Below, in pieces: positions 2,423 to 63,919 of a stretch of DNA of 64,000 nt. Each line of letters begins with the position of its first letter. Position 1 is the first letter of the stretch. The notes under the pieces were generated by a model. That model was not told the DNA's origin. It did not search any database and saw nothing but the letters and a program-made list of their open reading frames with translations. Origin of the DNA: a virus. Location of the stretch: the IMG/VR virus record IMGVR_UViG_3300027747_001183; one strand, 5' to 3'. A program made the translations under genes and the position numbers.

Positions 2423-3466
2423 TTACCTTAAGAACTGGTCTTCGAAGTGGTCATGCTCTACTGAGCAAGTCTTTGCACACATTCGCAGTTTTCCTTCTGC
2501 GAGTGACGGCGCGCTCCATGACTTCTCAATCTTATCAAAGAATCCGCTCTCGAAGACGCCGTTTATACCGTGCACCTTTGCATCTATATCTGATTTATCA
2601 CTTATTATGTGCTTAAACAGGTGACTGTCTTTATATTTTGATACTTCGGGATCATACATCTCGGAGCCACCTATCCAGCAGCAAGGTACCACTAGCCCTT
2701 CTGCACTAACGTACATTGAATTCTGCTTAACGACCCTGCACCCAATCTCAGTCTTATCTAAGAACTTATCCCAGCCCCCAAACTTCTGCTTAGCGCGCTC
2801 TCTAAAGTCGTTTACGTCGTGTACGTATTCTTTCTTTTCCGGCTGAGATAGGTGTTTATATACTGACATGCCGTTCTGCCAGCGCGATGTACGCTTTGGT
2901 ATAAAAGCCTTGAACCCTAGCTTCTTAGCCAGTGCTCGAGCTTCTTCTACCTGATGCTCGTTGTGCTTGAACACTAGAAAGTGCCACTCGGCTTGGCCGC
3001 CAGCACCTATGAAAGACTCCATCGCATTCATTACCCTGTCCCACTGGACGTTTTCTCTGTAGATATGGTTCGTATCTTCCAGTCCATCGACCGAGAAGGT
3101 AACTCGACCTTCATACAGCACCGATGCTAGGTCTCTCCACCACTCTGAGCTGCGCGCTCCTCCGTTGGTGAACATGCTCAGCTTCATAGATAGATTAGTA
3201 TACCTAAAATACTCAAACACTTCAAGCGTGTCTCTAGCCATTATAGGATCGCCGAAGTTTCCACACATGTACATGGCATGGAGCTGCTTGATAAAGTCTT
3301 TCTCAAAGATGTTCTTGCAGTCTTCTAGAGAAAGCTCAGCGTTCGTTAGGTGGTGCATTAGCTTTCCGCTACCGCTGCTGTCGTGTCTAGGACACATGGC
3401 GCAGCCGGCCTGACACTTCTCAGTTATCTCTAGGTGTACCTTGCGTATATCCCTGTACTTATACAT
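2423..3466 (-). CDS. Radical SAM protein with C-terminal SPASM/Twitch domain
   Basis: CQAGCAMC, GNFGDP and TNGG; C-terminal PCC..CAKTC; ATG at 3466 overlaps the upstream TGA. Confidence 0.88.
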   Translation of the reverse strand: MYKYRDIRKVHLEITEKCQAGCAMCPRHDSSGSGKLMHHLTNAELSLEDCKNIFEKDFIKQLHAMYMCGNFGDPIMARDTLEVFEYFRYTNLSMKLSMFTNGGARSSEWWRDLASVLYEGRVTFSVDGLEDTNHIYRENVQWDRVMNAMESFIGAGGQAEWHFLVFKHNEHQVEEARALAKKLGFKAFIPKRTSRWQNGMSVYKHLSQPEKKEYVHDVNDFRERAKQKFGGWDKFLDKTEIGCRVVKQNSMYVSAEGLVVPCCWIGGSEMYDPEVSKYKDSHLFKHIISDKSDIDAKVHGINGVFESGFFDKIEKSWSAPSLAEGKLRMCAKTCSVEHDHFEDQFLR

Positions 3467-3681
3467 CAGATGGTCGTCGGTGACTTCATCGGATCGTAAG
3501 GGTCGATCTTCTCTATGCGGCTGAGAGCGTCTTTCTCGTAGCGAAGAACTTGATACCATCCGAGGAAGGCAGTAAAGTCTGCAAACATGGCCGAGTAGTT
3601 CTGGTTGAAGATCTCAATGATAAAAGAAACCGCGACTACTGCTAGGATCGCGTACGAGAGCTTAATAAAGGTATGTATCAT
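3466..3681 (-). CDS. Hypothetical small membrane protein
   Basis: 71-aa ORF coupled to both neighbours; hydrophobic N-terminus. Confidence 0.65.
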   Translation of the reverse strand: MIHTFIKLSYAILAVVAVSFIIEIFNQNYSAMFADFTAFLGWYQVLRYEKDALSRIEKIDPYDPMKSPTTI

Positions 3682-7594: not shown

Positions 7595-8680
7595 TCACAA
7601 TCGGGGTAGGGAGCCTCCCCTGTGAAGCTCCGTGGTATTGCAGTGGATTCCACCATCAAAAAAGAATCTGTGTCTCAGGGGTGATATGTGTGGCACTATG
7701 CCATGCTTCTCAAAGGCATCAAAAGCCTGCTTGTTATAAGAAGAAACTATGACGTTCTTCTCATCTATTGTCAAAATATTGACATCAAATATGTTTTCTC
7801 TGATATGCTTAGACCAGTCATTCATCCACTTCTCTACGTACTCTACGAGCTCGTCATCGTCCTGAGCTCTAGGCATGTACCACTTTCCATGGTTCTTCTT
7901 CTTTGAAGCAAGAAAATCATTCATTGAATTTAGTCTGCTGTTCTTGAAGTAGATGACTTCCCATCCGGGGAACGTCTTACTATAAGTGTCTGGGCTATAG
8001 ACTGAGAATATAAGACCCGGCTTTACTGGATTAAAGCAGCCATCTGTATGACCACCACTCGTTACAGGAATGACGCTGTAGTCTCTAAGCCAGTTCTCCC
8101 ACACGTAGTCTACAGCGTCTATCATCTCAAAGTCGGTAAGCTTCTTGCTCGATCCAAAGAGTATATCTTTGCCAGTTCTCCATATACCGTTTAGCCTAAT
8201 TAGGCTTAAAACATCATCGCTCTCACCTCGAATTATCTTATTTCCGTTTGACTCAACATAGTCAAATACATTATCAAAGCACGAACTTAAGTTTTCTTTT
8301 TTGATGTCTTCAAGACTTAGCTTTATAGCACACTGTCTATTCTGCTTTATAACAATCTGATCGGGTGGAAATGAAAAGAACTTATCTCCTATCATTATTA
8401 TCTGGTCTCTAGGTACAGCGGAGACTGCAGGTGGTATGCTTATACCCTTTGATATATACTTTTCTGTATCTACTAGCGGCACCCTAGGGCGCAATACGTC
8501 TATGTTAAACGTCTTTAAGATGGAGATTAGTTTCTGCTTGTCTTCTTCCACCTCTATCGCAATCTGCTCAAACAGATTGCGAAGCCTACGGTTCTTCATA
8601 AAGCTAAAGAACTCAGGTGGGTAGCTTCTTCCTACCACGCATACCTTGAGTGGGTCCCACTCTTGATTCACTGTTAACAT
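7595..8680 (-). CDS. Amidinotransferase-like (pentein fold) protein
   Basis: EWDPLKVCVVG start, PRD, GGHTDG (His) and GGIHCNT (Cys) as in glycine/inosamine amidinotransferases. Confidence 0.82.
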   Translation of the reverse strand: MLTVNQEWDPLKVCVVGRSYPPEFFSFMKNRRLRNLFEQIAIEVEEDKQKLISILKTFNIDVLRPRVPLVDTEKYISKGISIPPAVSAVPRDQIIMIGDKFFSFPPDQIVIKQNRQCAIKLSLEDIKKENLSSCFDNVFDYVESNGNKIIRGESDDVLSLIRLNGIWRTGKDILFGSSKKLTDFEMIDAVDYVWENWLRDYSVIPVTSGGHTDGCFNPVKPGLIFSVYSPDTYSKTFPGWEVIYFKNSRLNSMNDFLASKKKNHGKWYMPRAQDDDELVEYVEKWMNDWSKHIRENIFDVNILTIDEKNVIVSSYNKQAFDAFEKHGIVPHISPLRHRFFFDGGIHCNTTELHRGGSLPRL

Positions 8681-59696: not shown

Positions 59697-60326
59697 TTAG
59701 TATTTATAAAAAACGAAAAACAACCGCTTATAGCCCTGGTCATTTATCTCTTCTTTTATGTCTTTTATCTCATAGTTGTAGATCTCGGCGATCTGGCGGA
59801 TGAATTCCTCGTCCCAGTCGTACCAGGTCAGGAGCTCGTTCAGCGGGAAGTCTGGGTGATAGTTATGCTTGGTGTTAGGGTTGACTCTCCAGAACTGGGT
59901 TCCACCAGACTTAGTGAGCTTGTCCACGCACTCTATCTCTGCTAGGATCTTCTCTTTTGTACCAAAGTTGATCGACCCGAGTGCTAGCACTGCGTCGAAC
60001 TGCCTGTCTGGGTTGGCATTCTGGTACTCGTATACGCCCTGCTTGACATCTGCTGCTGGATTAAATGGGTCGATTCCTACGAACTCAGTACACTCGACAG
60101 TCTCCTTGTACCGGTTAAAGCCGCACCCGACGTCAATCACTGACTCTGGGTTAAGATCATTTACCATTCTAGATACGTTCTCGCGGTTAGAATACTCAAA
60201 TACGTGCGTGTTGTCTTCCCAGACCTGGCTAAAGTACTTGTCCATGATCAGCGTGTGGATGTCACTGGAAAAAGCCCAGAGAACATCGTCTGGTGCAGAC
60301 TTCATTATTGAAAAGATCTTATCCAC
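59697..60326 (-). CDS. Class I SAM-dependent methyltransferase
   Basis: VIDVGCG, GIDP and FDAVLALGSINF. Confidence 0.85.
   Translation of the reverse strand: MDKIFSIMKSAPDDVLWAFSSDIHTLIMDKYFSQVWEDNTHVFEYSNRENVSRMVNDLNPESVIDVGCGFNRYKETVECTEFVGIDPFNPAADVKQGVYEYQNANPDRQFDAVLALGSINFGTKEKILAEIECVDKLTKSGGTQFWRVNPNTKHNYHPDFPLNELLTWYDWDEEFIRQIAEIYNYEIKDIKEEINDQGYKRLFFVFYKY
59701..59708 (-). promoter_or_regulatory. T4 late promoter
   Basis: TATAAATA at the 3' end of the methyltransferase gene, heading the fibre operon. Confidence 0.7.
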
Positions 60327-60954
60327 TTTTTTTACTCCAGTAAAGGTAGACTCTAGCGTCTAGTTTGAGATAGCTCTTATATTTTATAGATTCACTTGAA
60401 ATTTCAAGGGCATCTGCTAGTTCTATGGTATCTTGAATTTCAGTTACTTGGTTCTCTCGAATGAATTTGAGTATTCCATCATTCTGCTTCTTTATGTGTT
60501 CTTTCATGTGGTCCAGATCGACATAGTATCTATAGTCTGGGTAAGTAATGTTAAACCCACCACACTTTATCCACCACTCTAGACACTCGTCTTCTGGTCT
60601 ATAGACGATTACTATAGGTTGGTCTGGCCAGTTTTTCTTTAAGAAGTCTAGTTGGTATGAGAAAGAATGACTCTTTATTATCTTTATTCCGCCGCTATGA
60701 GAGAAAGGACGATTGAATTCTTTCTCTATATCATCTTTAGAAATAGTAGATAGGTCTCTAAAGTCATTTCCAAACTCCATGCCCGGGTCAAAGTACGCAC
60801 CCGTATGGGCTAACATATACTTATCATTTGCAGAGTGCCAGTGCATTCTTTTTTCTGATAAGTCGGAGTGATCTATACTGGGACTGTCGTCCAGCCACAT
60901 CGATATGGAGCTCCACTTAGATCCAGGCGCACCAGCTAGGAATATATACTTCAA
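60319..60954 (-). CDS. P-loop/sulfotransferase-like protein
   Basis: FLAGAPGSKWS, IIKSH and IVYR; TTG start overlaps the upstream stop. Confidence 0.6.
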   Translation of the reverse strand: MKYIFLAGAPGSKWSSISMWLDDSPSIDHSDLSEKRMHWHSANDKYMLAHTGAYFDPGMEFGNDFRDLSTISKDDIEKEFNRPFSHSGGIKIIKSHSFSYQLDFLKKNWPDQPIVIVYRPEDECLEWWIKCGGFNITYPDYRYYVDLDHMKEHIKKQNDGILKFIRENQVTEIQDTIELADALEISSESIKYKSYLKLDARVYLYWSKKSG

Positions 60955-61586
60955 TCTTGCATCCAATTTGGGCTGAGGAAGTTCTTTACATGCGCGTCTA
61001 GCCATGTAGCGTCTGCCTGACGGATATACTTCCTGTTAGCATCTTCTGACAAGATCTCTTCTACTATAGGATCTTTCCATGCTATTGGGAAGTCAAGCTG
61101 CTTCTCCAGCGACCTGAGATACTGCTTTCTGTACAGGTATAAGAGCTCTTGACTCACAAAGAACGGTGGTTCTTCTATTCTATTTAAGACCATCTGCATG
61201 GTACCCCAGGTAGGGCCGCCTCGTACCCTTGTCTGCTGCAAGTCTAATATATTTCTATCCCTACCGATTACTACTACTATGGGCTCAATGCCAAATTTCT
61301 TTAACCTATTAACCATTCCGGGTACGTCTGGTATCTTAGGATAGTACTCTCTAAGGTAAGGCGCACTTACACTTGTTACAGCATACTTCTTATCTCCCAT
61401 AATCTCTTTACTGACTAGGTTCATGTCATTCCAGTAGTCGTTAAACGGCTCAAACCAGTGAGGGATGAAGTATCCATCTTCAGTCAGTGACTCTTTCCAC
61501 CCGGCGACTTCTTCGTGAATACTAAAGATCTTAGAGAATAGGTGGTTTCCGGATCCCTGAGGCCCGACCAAGATGACCATCTTCAT
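60951..61586 (-). CDS. P-loop/sulfotransferase-like protein
   Basis: ILVGPQGSGNHLFSKI, VIGRD and FVSQELL. Confidence 0.6.
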   Translation of the reverse strand: MKMVILVGPQGSGNHLFSKIFSIHEEVAGWKESLTEDGYFIPHWFEPFNDYWNDMNLVSKEIMGDKKYAVTSVSAPYLREYYPKIPDVPGMVNRLKKFGIEPIVVVIGRDRNILDLQQTRVRGGPTWGTMQMVLNRIEEPPFFVSQELLYLYRKQYLRSLEKQLDFPIAWKDPIVEEILSEDANRKYIRQADATWLDAHVKNFLSPNWMQD

Positions 61587-61951
61587 AGACCCATCTCCTT
61601 GCGAATCTGAGTAGCTGAGATCTTAAGGATCTCCTTGTCAAAGTATTCTTTCTCGATAGTGTATCCAACATCACGTCCATACGTGATGTTTACTATGTTT
61701 GGTACATTTATGATCTTAAAGTCTGTCTCGTTTTCAAATCCAGCTGCAGTAAGATCATGAATGATGTTATTCTTTACGGTGACGAAGTCGAAGGGGTTCT
61801 TCCTATCGGTTCCGTGAGTATCGCGTACCATTATTGCTACCTGACCAGTCTTCGCGTATGCTCGCTTGAAAAGTTCGGTATGACCCGGATGCCATGGCTG
61901 GTACCTGCCGAGCAGCTGTACCGTGGGTGCTTTATCGTTCCACTCTTTCAT
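61583..61951 (-). CDS. HxGH nucleotidylyltransferase (cytidylyltransferase-like)
   Basis: GRYQPWHPGH, NPF and ISATQIR. Confidence 0.85.
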   Translation of the reverse strand: MKEWNDKAPTVQLLGRYQPWHPGHTELFKRAYAKTGQVAIMVRDTHGTDRKNPFDFVTVKNNIIHDLTAAGFENETDFKIINVPNIVNITYGRDVGYTIEKEYFDKEILKISATQIRKEMGL

Positions 61952-62412
61952 ATTCTCATTCCTATCATCATTGCTTTTGCTAGAGACGGGTTTAGTCGAT
62001 AGTCTAGGTCTTCGTATATTGCCTTTGCCCAGAACTTAGAGTCTTGCGTGTTGACTTTAAAGTCGTATCTGATCGGCTCTTCGAAGATCTTATTTGTATC
62101 CTCGAATCTGCCCTTCTCGATAGTGTCTACCCATACAGTGAAAGCCTCGCCGAACGCTTCTCGAGTATCCTTGGTAGGACATACAAAGTCTGCAATGGCA
62201 AAGTGACCAGCGATTACTACCTGATCACAGAGCCATCCCATCCTGCGAGCCTGTTCAATTCTGTCCTCAGAGCTAAACCCGAGGTGAGTATTGATGTTTG
62301 CCCTGACTGCGTCTGCGTTCCAGTGGACCGCTCTGAGCAAGGGAGCTAAGTCCCTTGCCAGAGTCGTCTTTCCAGAACCAGGTAGACCCATTATTAGGAT
62401 CTTCTTGATCAT
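61948..62412 (-). CDS. Adenylyl-sulfate kinase (CysC)-like kinase
   Basis: MGLPGSGKTTLA, NADAVR, FSSEDR and FEEP. Confidence 0.82.
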   Translation of the reverse strand: MIKKILIMGLPGSGKTTLARDLAPLLRAVHWNADAVRANINTHLGFSSEDRIEQARRMGWLCDQVVIAGHFAIADFVCPTKDTREAFGEAFTVWVDTIEKGRFEDTNKIFEEPIRYDFKVNTQDSKFWAKAIYEDLDYRLNPSLAKAMMIGMRI

Positions 62413-63848
62413 GCAAGTACTTCTTTCTTTGCAGCATACTTGCTGACTAGGTAGCAGACGATGCCTGCGCCGAACACCTGTATCAGCGTTCCAGTCACCT
62501 GAATGTTTGGACCGCCGCCGAAGAGGAGGCCGTAGACATACAGTGGAGAACCGACGAGCGATCCCACTGCCGCACCTGCAATGAATCCCCACTTAGTAAG
62601 GAACTGAGGTGCTACTACTCCGATCACCACTGGGATGAAGAAGCAGAGCTGGAATGTCTTGCCAAACAGGAAGATGGTGTTCAGGTCGAGACCTGGGATG
62701 TTGGCGAGTAAGATGCCGATACCCGCAAACACGATCATTGCCACTCGGCTCCAGAGTACTGGGTTCTTACCCTTGAAGTAGTCGTGGAAGTCGCTGCCTA
62801 CCATGTTCGCGCTGTTGATGAGCATCGTATCGATGATGCTGATTAGTCCGGCAAAGACGGTCATCAAGAACACCAACACGAGCCATGGTCCGACGACCTG
62901 CGCCATTACCATTAGGTTAACGAAGCCGGACTTGGTACCTGCGTCGATGTGCATCCCAGCTGCGATCATGCCTAGTGGACCGCCGATGAGCTGAAGGACT
63001 AACCAGCAGAACGGGGCAGCGATGTATGCCCAGAGTGCAACGTTAGGCTTCATGGCAAAGGCGTTCTGGTATCCCTCGTTGGTGGTCCATGCCGAAGCAA
63101 AGTGACCGATTACAGTCGGGATACCAAAGCCGAATAGAAGTCCGAGGGCAAAGCTGTCGCTCCAGAGAGACGTACCCTTGCCAGTCTTACCTGCCATGCC
63201 ATCGATGATCGGCTGCCATCCAGTAACGCTGTATACTGTATAGCCGACGACTGCTACGCCGACGAAGATCATGAGGATCTTGATGACGTCAGTTACGATA
63301 GACGCCTTGATGCCGCCGCGAAGCGAGTAGGTCAAGGCAGTACCGACTAGCAGAGCAGATACCAGCATCGGGTTGATGCCTGTCAAGAGACTTAGACTCT
63401 GAGTACCAGCAAAGAGGTCGATAGTAAGTGACTGCAGTGTCAAGAGAAGAAGCTGCAGTAGGATTAAGAAGCTAATGAAGCCGCCCCACTTGCCCTTGAA
63501 GTACTCACTCAGTGTAAAGATCTTGCCGTTGTCGTTCCGGAACTTATTGATAAAGTACGCGAAGACGATGTAGCTGAAGAAGTTACCAAAGCTGAACCAG
63601 AACACGCCCGGCCAGCCGTTGTTGTATCCCTGCTGTGCAGCGACGAATAGACCCGGCGCGTGAATCCAGCTAGCACCAGCAGAGAAAGTTCCCTGAAAGA
63701 AACCGATCTCGCGGTTTGCTACTAAGAAACTCTCTTTGCTGCTGTCGAACCCCTTGGCGAAGAAGCTCGTCAAGAAGAATACTGCGACTGCGTAGAACGC
63801 TATGAGCGCGAACCCCGTAGTCTGGTCAAATAATGGAAAAATGTTCAT
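62409..63848 (-). CDS. Sodium:solute symporter family transporter
   Basis: Many TM helices; FLVANR, ASWI and YSLRGGIKASIVTD. Confidence 0.88.
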   Translation of the reverse strand: MNIFPLFDQTTGFALIAFYAVAVFFLTSFFAKGFDSSKESFLVANREIGFFQGTFSAGASWIHAPGLFVAAQQGYNNGWPGVFWFSFGNFFSYIVFAYFINKFRNDNGKIFTLSEYFKGKWGGFISFLILLQLLLLTLQSLTIDLFAGTQSLSLLTGINPMLVSALLVGTALTYSLRGGIKASIVTDVIKILMIFVGVAVVGYTVYSVTGWQPIIDGMAGKTGKGTSLWSDSFALGLLFGFGIPTVIGHFASAWTTNEGYQNAFAMKPNVALWAYIAAPFCWLVLQLIGGPLGMIAAGMHIDAGTKSGFVNLMVMAQVVGPWLVLVFLMTVFAGLISIIDTMLINSANMVGSDFHDYFKGKNPVLWSRVAMIVFAGIGILLANIPGLDLNTIFLFGKTFQLCFFIPVVIGVVAPQFLTKWGFIAGAAVGSLVGSPLYVYGLLFGGGPNIQVTGTLIQVFGAGIVCYLVSKYAAKKEVLA

Positions 63849-63871
63849 TTCACTCTCTCACTTAGTTACGT

Positions 63872-63919
63872 TTAGATTAGCATCTCACTCTTTGCTTTGT
63901 TCCAGTCTTCTGTTGACAT
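63872..63919 (-). CDS. Possible 15-aa peptide MSTEDWNKAKSEMLI
   Basis: AGGAG RBS and TAATG coupling to an upstream ORF cut by the window edge. Confidence 0.35.
   Translation of the reverse strand: MSTEDWNKAKSEMLI

Follow-up and report, generated by a model that had tools for sequence, protein, structure and literature searches.

What a phage might gain from encoding a membrane importer in one run with a kinase, a nucleotidyltransferase, two candidate transferases and a methyltransferase is the question raised by a 64,000-nucleotide (nt) stretch of viral DNA from the IMG/VR record IMGVR_UViG_3300027747_001183, here called the window, in which six minus-strand open reading frames (ORFs), numbered g1 to g6 from the upstream end, occupy positions 59697-63848. 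The first-pass annotation of this DNA had read them as a self-contained pathway importing a small solute, activating it and transferring it to a target on the virion or the host surface. All six overlapping genes are present, and both their coordinates and their overlaps hold, apart from two starts that we correct below. We favour, at a rough probability of 0.48, the reading that these genes function and are inherited together as a phage module for sulfation-type group transfer, which would supply its own donor and brings its own importer.

Co-inheritance had been set beforehand, together with the fold of the two P-loop proteins g4 and g5, as a point on which the proposal could fail. It was assessed in 79 viral loci of IMG/VR fetched with the g4 profile, the other genes being scored within 7 kb of g4; as many of the contigs are cut, the counts are lower bounds. 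Within this distance g6 is present in 62 loci, g5 in 47, g1 in 36, the pair of g2 and g3 in 27, and c2, a seventh gene reduced to a remnant in the window, in 56. The genes occur in 51 distinct orders and orientations and yet remain adjacent, so that the cassette is best described as a shuffled yet linked set, found in hundreds of uncultured phages, and the idea of one co-inherited module has held up. Since each gene has tens to thousands of homologues and the linkage is kept across viral contigs, chance cannot account for this run of ORFs. Its genomic position differs among lineages, lying beside gp15/neck genes, PhoH or fibre genes. The close relative L165 (4798-10868), with a 96% identical importer, shows another order, g5 following g3 directly, which indicates recent reshuffling within one lineage; this locus also has a different g4 paralogue and a second methyltransferase divergently upstream. 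Near-identical DNA is found in freshwater metagenomes from several studies, with RNA runs containing only 6% of the sampled sequence words, and a megablast search with the cassette against 50,697 GenBank phage records gave no match.

One indication of the type of chemistry comes from g4 and g5. Both were modelled with AlphaFold2 (AF2) from alignments of diverse homologues (389 homologous clusters for g4, 1590 for g5), yielding predicted local distance difference test (pLDDT) scores of 92.5 and 88.7 respectively, and the models were compared by fold with all 48,161 PDB representatives. For g4 the top eight chains are all sulfotransferases, including TPST1 (Z 12.2, root-mean-square deviation (rmsd) 2.9, 161 residues aligned) and an olefin-synthase sulfotransferase (Z 12.0), the first kinase following at Z 9.3. 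Likewise, the top six chains for g5 are all sulfotransferases, with TPST1 at Z 11.3 (rmsd 3.5, 166 aligned) and the first kinase at Z 8.7. By these models, both P-loop proteins are predicted to have the transferase fold that the first-pass annotation had assigned to them. Among the ESM Atlas neighbours of g4 are clusters that bear the name sulfotransferase (at 0.94), and sub-threshold matches to PF13469 are found in 15 of 26 g5 relatives (best E 1.9e-5). By eye, both proteins have a strand-Arg-helix element at the sulfotransferase 3'-phosphate site, and a K-S-H triplet in g5 resembles the K-T-H of cytosolic sulfotransferases. Neither contains a Walker A GK[ST], the corresponding loops being GPQGSGNH in g4 and APGSKWSS in g5.

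At the level of primary sequence these relationships are faint. For g4 there is no Pfam, PHROG or NCBIfam match and a tblastn search of GenBank phage records came back empty; the g5 of the window has no Pfam match; 27 members of the g4 family compared with the sulfotransferase Pfam models PF13469 and PF00685 gave none at E<=0.1; and the g4 and g5 profiles find PDB chains at chance level only. A relationship of g4 and g5 to each other, and to an unannotated protein named c10, was considered and discarded, as hhalign detects none beyond the P-loop. This c10 protein (about 245 amino acids (aa), with an N-terminal QPGAYGSF loop) is encoded directly upstream of the importer in 17 loci, for example L011:276-1025 and L018:4688-5422, and could be a third P-loop or sulfotransferase-like member. 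Among 185,579 species genomes, the g5 profile finds only two phage-like contigs of one Haliscomenobacter metagenome-assembled genome (MAG) (L080 and L081; NZ_JBBAKG010000049.1 and the contig ending in 36.1). Both hold the cassette together with PhoH and other jumbo-phage-like genes, and we do not take Haliscomenobacter as the host, as the contigs are probably phage DNA binned into the MAG.

The sulfotransferase fold binds a 3'-phosphoadenylyl donor, the type of product made by an enzyme resembling adenosine 5'-phosphosulfate (APS) kinase, and in this context the neighbouring g2 is of particular relevance. Its match to the APS kinase family PF01583 (E 4.7e-14, 53.1 bits) is well above the cut-off of 21.1. 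The six best NCBIfam matches are all APS kinase models, each under its own cut-off, and the 23 sequence matches in PDB, of which 2yvu is the best (E 4.6e-9), are APS kinases or synthases of 3'-phosphoadenosine 5'-phosphosulfate (PAPS), save for one sub-threshold P-loop match to adenylate kinase 9. The protein contains the motifs GLPGSGKTT, D-A-V-R, LGFS, EDR, RR and F-V-C-P. Across 86 members of the family the Walker A, the second Asp and the Arg of DGDxxR, F-S, the R of EDR, RM/RR and a FISP-like D-F-V-x-P are conserved.

The partner g3 has HPGH at residues 21-24, a match to CTP_transf_like (PF01467) at E 8.5e-4 and 20.0 bits, just short of the 21-bit cut-off, and 68-69% of the members of its ESM Atlas neighbours match PF01467. 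In 19 members of its family GR[YWF]QPWHxGH, YGRDVGY and ISATxIR are invariant; HPGH, G-R-D and ISATxIR can, by eye only, be seen as analogues of ATP-sulfurylase motifs. The best PDB match is NadM (2qjt, E 7.7e-4), confined to residues 13-76. Membership among the nicotinamide mononucleotide (NMN) adenylyltransferases is not reached by g3: it has their signature GRYQPWHPGH, and its score stays far under the cut-off.

Whatever the substrates of g2 and g3, that they work together, as had been proposed, is well supported. They jointly match the fused phrog_10255 end to end, and in 80 loci fetched with the g3 profile (858 family clusters at E<=1e-10) they are adjacent in 78, mostly as a fusion of about 262 aa. 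The reverse fusion also exists, in the 311-aa P0357 cluster from marine (Tara) data, where an N-terminal nucleotidyltransferase is followed by an 'adenylyl-sulfate kinase' part. Cultured phages with the fusion comprise Xylella phages Sano, Salvo and Bacata, Stenotrophomonas phages DLP6, Suzuki and Bhz60, Xanthomonas phages AhaSv and Seregon, and Clavibacter phage 33. The fused gene is annotated 'kinase' or 'Adenylylsulfate kinase' in Bacata (L162, 29138-30314) and DLP6 (L163, 129043-129774), and the gene with which it overlaps in Salvovirus has the annotation COG3236 / GTP cyclohydrolase II domain protein. In about nine of the g3-fetched loci the fused pair is followed immediately by a gene for a 69-aa membrane protein with DUF2061 (E 1.2e-22), for example L097:7338-7547; the window has none. 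On these sequence relationships a role of g2 and g3 in PAPS supply is plausible.

The remaining gene of the first half, g1, is by its profile a member of the sodium:solute symporter (SSS) family (PF00474, E 4e-14, 52.8 bits against a cut-off of 22.8, residues 41-417 of 479), supported by phrog_20720 at E 6e-59; the superfamily model TIGR00813 gives 81.5 bits, under its cut-off of 184. No subfamily of known substrate (PutP, PanF, DUR3, SGLT) reached its cut-off, panF for example scoring 12.8 against 328 bits, and the DUR3 and SGLT chains align to its N-terminal ~200 residues only (E 1e-8 to 1e-4). Homologues of at least 49% identity sit on phage-sized contigs, and tblastn of GenBank phage records returned a single match, to a fecal phage contig at 30% identity. 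In 31 of the 32 loci in which both neighbours are visible, the importer gene stands between two genes of the cassette. In lineages without g1 the same gene set contains instead components of a tripartite tricarboxylate transporter (TTT): the TctC binding protein (PF03401, E 2.9e-18), which in 11 loci always adjoins g5, and the TctA membrane subunit (PF01970, E 2e-78). As one transporter type is swapped for another in the same context, import would appear to belong to the function, and the proposal that it forms part of the module is borne out. TctC adjoins g5 in L046-L054, L059, L065, L066, L072 and L073, and TctA is accompanied by a 357-aa partner in L035, L049, L056, L071 and L074; often TctC stands alone in the cassette with no membrane subunit within reach.

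The cassette also extends beyond position 63848. In relatives c2, a 2-oxoglutarate (2OG)/Fe(II)-oxygenase-like protein of about 230-235 aa, is encoded directly upstream of the importer, and it is intact in locus L164 at 2855-3541. Identity with L164 is 100% over the final 115 bases of the window (L164 2786-2900) and 98% over the g1 region (L164 3544-5012); between these stretches lies an in-frame deletion of ~643 nt, joined at the 5-nt microhomology GAGTG, which leaves the first 11 and the last 4 codons of c2 as a 15-codon mini-ORF still upstream of the importer. Contigs from three freshwater runs enter full-length c2 exactly at the junction, and in one run the deleted form is matched by a pair of contigs that share 30 nt (63861-63890), a fit that falls short of full bridging, with 26 nt on one side. 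Both forms thus probably circulate. The protein carries H-x-D...H...R, and its sole matches, to AtsK (E 0.075) and E. coli TauD (E 0.057), are non-significant and cover 26-45 columns around the distal-His motif W..GD...D....H. We do not assign it to the TauD/AtsK family, given these E values and a spacing from HxD to His of 57 residues against about 156 in TauD. At the other end of the block, g6 is a weak but plausible class I S-adenosylmethionine (SAM) methyltransferase: Methyltransf_23 is matched at E 5.6e-4 and 20.1 bits, short of the 27-bit cut-off, and the motif I VIDVGCGFN is conserved as (V)LDVGCGFN in 40 family members.

Taken as one pathway, these genes would operate as follows. The importer would bring in a solute that the pathway requires, be it the acceptor or, as a source of sulfur, sulfate or an organosulfur anion. 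The minimal HxGH adenylyltransferase g3 would transfer the AMP moiety of ATP to a small oxyanion, sulfate being the likeliest, to form APS, and g2 would phosphorylate the 3'-OH of APS to give PAPS. From this donor g4 and g5, two unrelated families of predicted tyrosylprotein-sulfotransferase-like fold, would pass the sulfo group to an acceptor, to which g6 may add a methyl group; in most relatives c2 may provide the hydroxyl group of the acceptor or release inorganic sulfur from the solute that is taken up. The target might be the virion, DNA, the host surface or a small molecule. The strongest argument for the scheme is its consistency: a sulfotransferase fold needs a 3'-phosphoadenylyl donor, the APS-kinase-like g2 would make one, and the obligate partner of g2 is an adenylyltransferase. 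Because g3 matches no ATP sulfurylase, we infer its role in sulfate activation from this context. A more far-reaching version, which we regard as possible but rather doubtful, is that the g3 family constitutes a minimal, undescribed class of ATP sulfurylase, which with the phage-exclusive sulfotransferases and the importer would provide a complete late sulfation pathway in T4-like phages, possibly in hosts unable to activate sulfate. In a bolder variant, an imported organic anion may be adenylylated and 3'-phosphorylated, and g4 and g5 may transfer a non-sulfate group from this PAPS-like donor.

This scheme, however, has to accommodate a number of observations that weigh against it. The match of g2 to PF01583 is limited to residues 5-90, the equivalog TIGR00455 scores 49.6 against a cut-off of 138.7 bits, and in all 86 aligned members of the family DGD is replaced by an invariant N-A-D, the first Asp being Asn. 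In human PAPSS1 replacement of either Asp of DGD by Ala abolishes APS kinase activity, D87A being inactive (PMC8528679). The CysC-like assignment of the first-pass annotation is retained at the level of profile and PDB similarity, but the loss of the first Asp of DGD clearly sets the family apart from the canonical enzyme. The annotation had also likened g3 to ATP sulfurylase; the HxGH is indeed there, and no ATP sulfurylase model (PF01747; NCBIfam sulfate adenylyltransferase) matches at E<=0.1, the best NCBIfam matches being NMN adenylyltransferases (E 7.7e-6, 25.6 against 127 bits), followed by FAD synthase and phosphopantetheine adenylyltransferase (PPAT). The lead of the sulfotransferases over the first kinase, 2.6-2.9 Z units, is modest as regards P-loop kinases, and in the GPQGSGNH loop of g4 the Lys or Arg that is usual in a 5'-phosphosulfate loop is missing. 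The solved chains closest to g1 are the DUR3 urea symporters (E 1.4e-8, N-terminal half only), and transporters of the SSS and TTT types are not known to carry sulfate. Finally, g4, g5 or g6 lies within 7 kb in only about 8 of the 80 g3-fetched loci, so that the g2-g3 pair is far commoner than the cassette, and neither PF13469 and PF00685 nor the profiles of g4 and g5 find a match in the complete genomes of Bacata and DLP6. The presence of the fusion in phages without a detectable sulfotransferase implies that the function of g2 and g3 needs no phage sulfotransferase, and as the pair is mostly found without the others, the description of the pathway as self-contained does not hold in every case.

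Several of these points would be accommodated if the block were a mosaic of separate accessory genes in a plastic region, with g2 and g3 as a general nucleotide-cofactor module (NAD-like, CoA-like or making another 3'-phosphoadenylyl compound), g4 and g5 using PAPS of the host and g1 acting as a plain nutrient importer. This would agree with the fact that most g2-g3 pairs lie far from g4, g5 and g6, in the vicinity of neck/tail and other structural genes, glycosyltransferases, DUF2061 or replication genes, as well as with the many g4 loci that have neither g2-g3 nor a transporter, the complete cultured phages that carry the fusion with no detectable sulfotransferase, its COG3236 / GTP cyclohydrolase II domain neighbour in Salvovirus, and the proximity of g3 to NMN adenylyltransferases. 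A mosaic would not, however, be expected to keep its co-occurring genes overlapping and adjacent through 51 orders, nor to have an importer that almost never adjoins a non-cassette gene and whose place within the same set is taken by a second type of transporter; and g2 matches APS kinases rather than dephospho-CoA or nicotinamide riboside kinases. We consider this explanation unlikely. If, on the other hand, g4 and g5 were divergent P-loop kinases or phosphotransferases acting on a macromolecule (DNA bases, tRNA or protein), the cassette would be a phosphorylation/methylation system. Adenylate, uridylate and gluconate kinases and PSTK do appear at Z 8.7-9.3, which is 2.6-2.9 under the best sulfotransferases, and g4 and g5 show no significant sequence match to solved sulfotransferases and, in the window, no Pfam match. 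Against this stand the absence of a Walker A GK[ST] from g4 and g5, the exclusive occupation of the top six to eight places by sulfotransferase folds aligned over about 160 residues and extending past the kinase core, the PF13469 matches in those 15 of 26 g5 relatives, and the strand-Arg-helix element seen by eye in both proteins, such that a kinase identity seems to us improbable.

The analogy with the lic pathway drawn by the first-pass annotation leads to a further scheme, namely a route via a nucleoside-diphosphate (NDP)-linked solute, in which a small alcohol or sugar brought in by g1 would be phosphorylated by g2 and then linked by g3 to a nucleotide, in the manner of LicA/LicC, HldE or TagD; from there g4 and g5 would pass the solute, with or without its phosphate, to a virion or surface target. 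The order of kinase and nucleotidyltransferase is that of HldE, g3 weakly matches cytidylyltransferase-like models and the HldE-type phrog_7878, and TagD, at 129 aa, is of the size of g3. In many phages, moreover, g2 and g3 lie among glycosyltransferases (GT25, and a tetratricopeptide-repeat (TPR) protein whose C-terminal part is glycosyltransferase-like by eye), and g1 distantly resembles the SGLT and DUR3 carriers of neutral solutes. Yet g2 retains the residues by which APS kinases hold the adenylyl-sulfate nucleotide, needless for a small-alcohol kinase, the fusions occur in both orders, as in PAPS synthases, and LicD, CDP-alcohol transferases and glycosyltransferases do not have the sulfotransferase fold predicted for g4 and g5. 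With such transferases the lic analogy fits poorly, and we rank this route last. A sulfation-type module remains the reading that we prefer.

The virion had been named, beside the host surface, as a possible target, and the cassette had been noted to lie directly upstream of a fibre operon. The position is as described, and the first gene beyond the cassette, of 108 aa, matches phrog_3304, 'L-shaped tail fiber protein assembly'. A T4-type late promoter, TATAAATA, is nevertheless situated within the end of g6, 30 nt ahead of the GTG of this gene. The window contains 8 perfect copies of this site against 1.9 expected, every one on the minus strand, and none of them precedes a cassette gene. As the fibre genes have their own late promoter they form a separate late unit, and as the position of the cassette varies among relatives, the adjacency of fibre genes in the window is no evidence for a virion target. 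We have accordingly dropped targeting of the virion fibres, which was based on position alone. Of 35 distinct gaps between divergent cassette arms in relatives, 13 contain a perfect TATAAATA site, where about 0.5 would be expected, which suggests that there the cassette is often expressed late.

The layout of the locus is summarised in Table 1. The junctions, as read from the sequence, are ATGA start/stop overlaps at g1/g2, g2/g3 and g3/g4, most likely a TTGA overlap at g4/g5, and an 8-nt overlap at g5/g6; the genes are thus co-directional in a translationally coupled arrangement, with 4-nt overlaps at four junctions (the one at g4/g5 being most likely) and the longer one at the fifth. Of the two corrected starts, that of g2 is the ATG at 62412, which provides the ATGA overlap with the g1 stop and a protein of 154 aa (homologues 153-157 aa), and not the upstream GTG of a 214-aa ORF; that of g5 is most likely the TTG at 60954, from which the protein would begin MKYIF... 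as in its homologues. Elsewhere in the window, 50-60 kb from the cassette, are an amidinotransferase/arginine-deiminase-like gene with a C-terminal GGIHC motif (7595-8680, minus strand) and a radical SAM/SPASM gene (2423-3559, minus strand), members of families that in other phages are found inside or beside the cassette.

Table 1. Features of the cassette and its boundaries, in window coordinates
Feature	Positions	Strand	Basis
c2 remnant, 15 codons (MSTEDWNKAKSEMLI)	63872..63919	-	alignment to L164
g1, 479-aa SSS membrane transporter	62409..63848	-	PF00474, phrog_20720
g2, 154-aa APS-kinase-like P-loop kinase	61948..62412	-	PF01583, PDB and NCBIfam matches
g3, 122-aa minimal HxGH nucleotidyltransferase	61583..61951	-	CTP_transf_like, motifs GRYQPWHPGH ... 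YGRDVGY ... ISATQIR
g4, 211-aa predicted sulfotransferase-fold protein, virus-dominated family	60951..61586	-	AF2 model fold search; GPQGSGNH loop, IGRD..QQ.R.RG helix
g5, about 211-aa second predicted sulfotransferase-fold protein, phage-exclusive family	60319..60954	-	AF2 model; APGSKWSS loop, KSH, R..D..WW
g6, 209-aa class I SAM-methyltransferase-like protein	59697..60326	-	weak Methyltransf_23, motif I VIDVGCGFN
T4-type late promoter TATAAATA, downstream cassette boundary	59701..59708	-	perfect match; in last g6 codons

Should the sulfation-type scheme be correct, phages would perform sulfation, an activity to which phage biology has given little thought, making the donor themselves, encoding the importer and using families that are almost virus-only. 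There would, in addition, be a third and very small kind of sulfate-activating enzyme, bearing on the origin of PAPS in organisms without Sat and CysDN. Should it be wrong, few unexplained multi-gene modules of freshwater T4-like phages would still be as widespread as this cassette. The ESM Atlas cluster of one of its enzyme families has 9,886 members, and a literature search on phage sulfotransferases, APS kinases and sulfation cassettes found no paper describing such a cassette.

Comparison with known systems places the individual proteins near several familiar enzymes. The sequence matches of g2 include PAPS synthases (human PAPSS1 1x6v, Aquifex Sat-APS kinase 2gks and Penicillium 1m8p), with which the phage proteins have both orders of fusion in common; the phage adenylyltransferase half is, however, about 110-120 aa instead of about 390 and has no ATP-sulfurylase match, and the kinase is trimmed (154 aa) with an altered Mg-binding DGD. 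With the NMN adenylyltransferases NadM and NadR (Francisella NadM 2qjt, Methanocaldococcus 1f9a) g3 has in common G-R-[FYW]-Q-P-[FW]-H-x-G-H and ISxTxIR, but it is 45-50 residues shorter and tied to an APS-kinase-like partner that is not needed for NAD synthesis. The best folds for g4 (Z 12.2-11.6) and g5 (Z 11.3-9.6), each over about 160 aligned residues, are TPST1/TPST2 (5wri, 3ap3) and the CurM/olefin-synthase sulfotransferase domains (4gbm, 4gox), from which the phage proteins differ in their length (about 211 aa against 270-300), in an identity of 10-16% and in their 5'-phosphosulfate loop motifs. The position of c2 beside the importer in relatives recalls sulfur scavenging by a transporter with a dioxygenase, as in TauABC-TauD and AtsK, although c2 could equally be an acceptor hydroxylase.

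As regards whole pathways, the lic locus has the same order of roles, import, kinase, nucleotidyltransferase and transferase (LicB, LicA, LicC, LicD), but LicA has a choline-kinase fold, LicC a GT-A-like one and LicD another transferase fold, none of which match g2-g5. A closer parallel may be found in bacterial sulfation systems. NodP, NodQ and NodH of Sinorhizobium sulfate the Nod factor, and RaxP, RaxQ and RaxST of Xanthomonas sulfate a tyrosine of RaxX. Like the phage cassette as we interpret it, these sets combine a private PAPS supply with the sulfotransferase that it serves and sometimes, with NodS, a methyltransferase acting on the same product. They nonetheless employ an ATP sulfurylase of the CysD/CysN type and a canonical APS kinase, where the cassette has a 122-aa NMNAT-like protein and a kinase with NAD in place of DGD; and the cassette differs further in having an importer, in being carried by phages and, judging by the promoters in relatives, mostly expressed late, and in drawing its sulfotransferase-fold proteins from virus-specific families.

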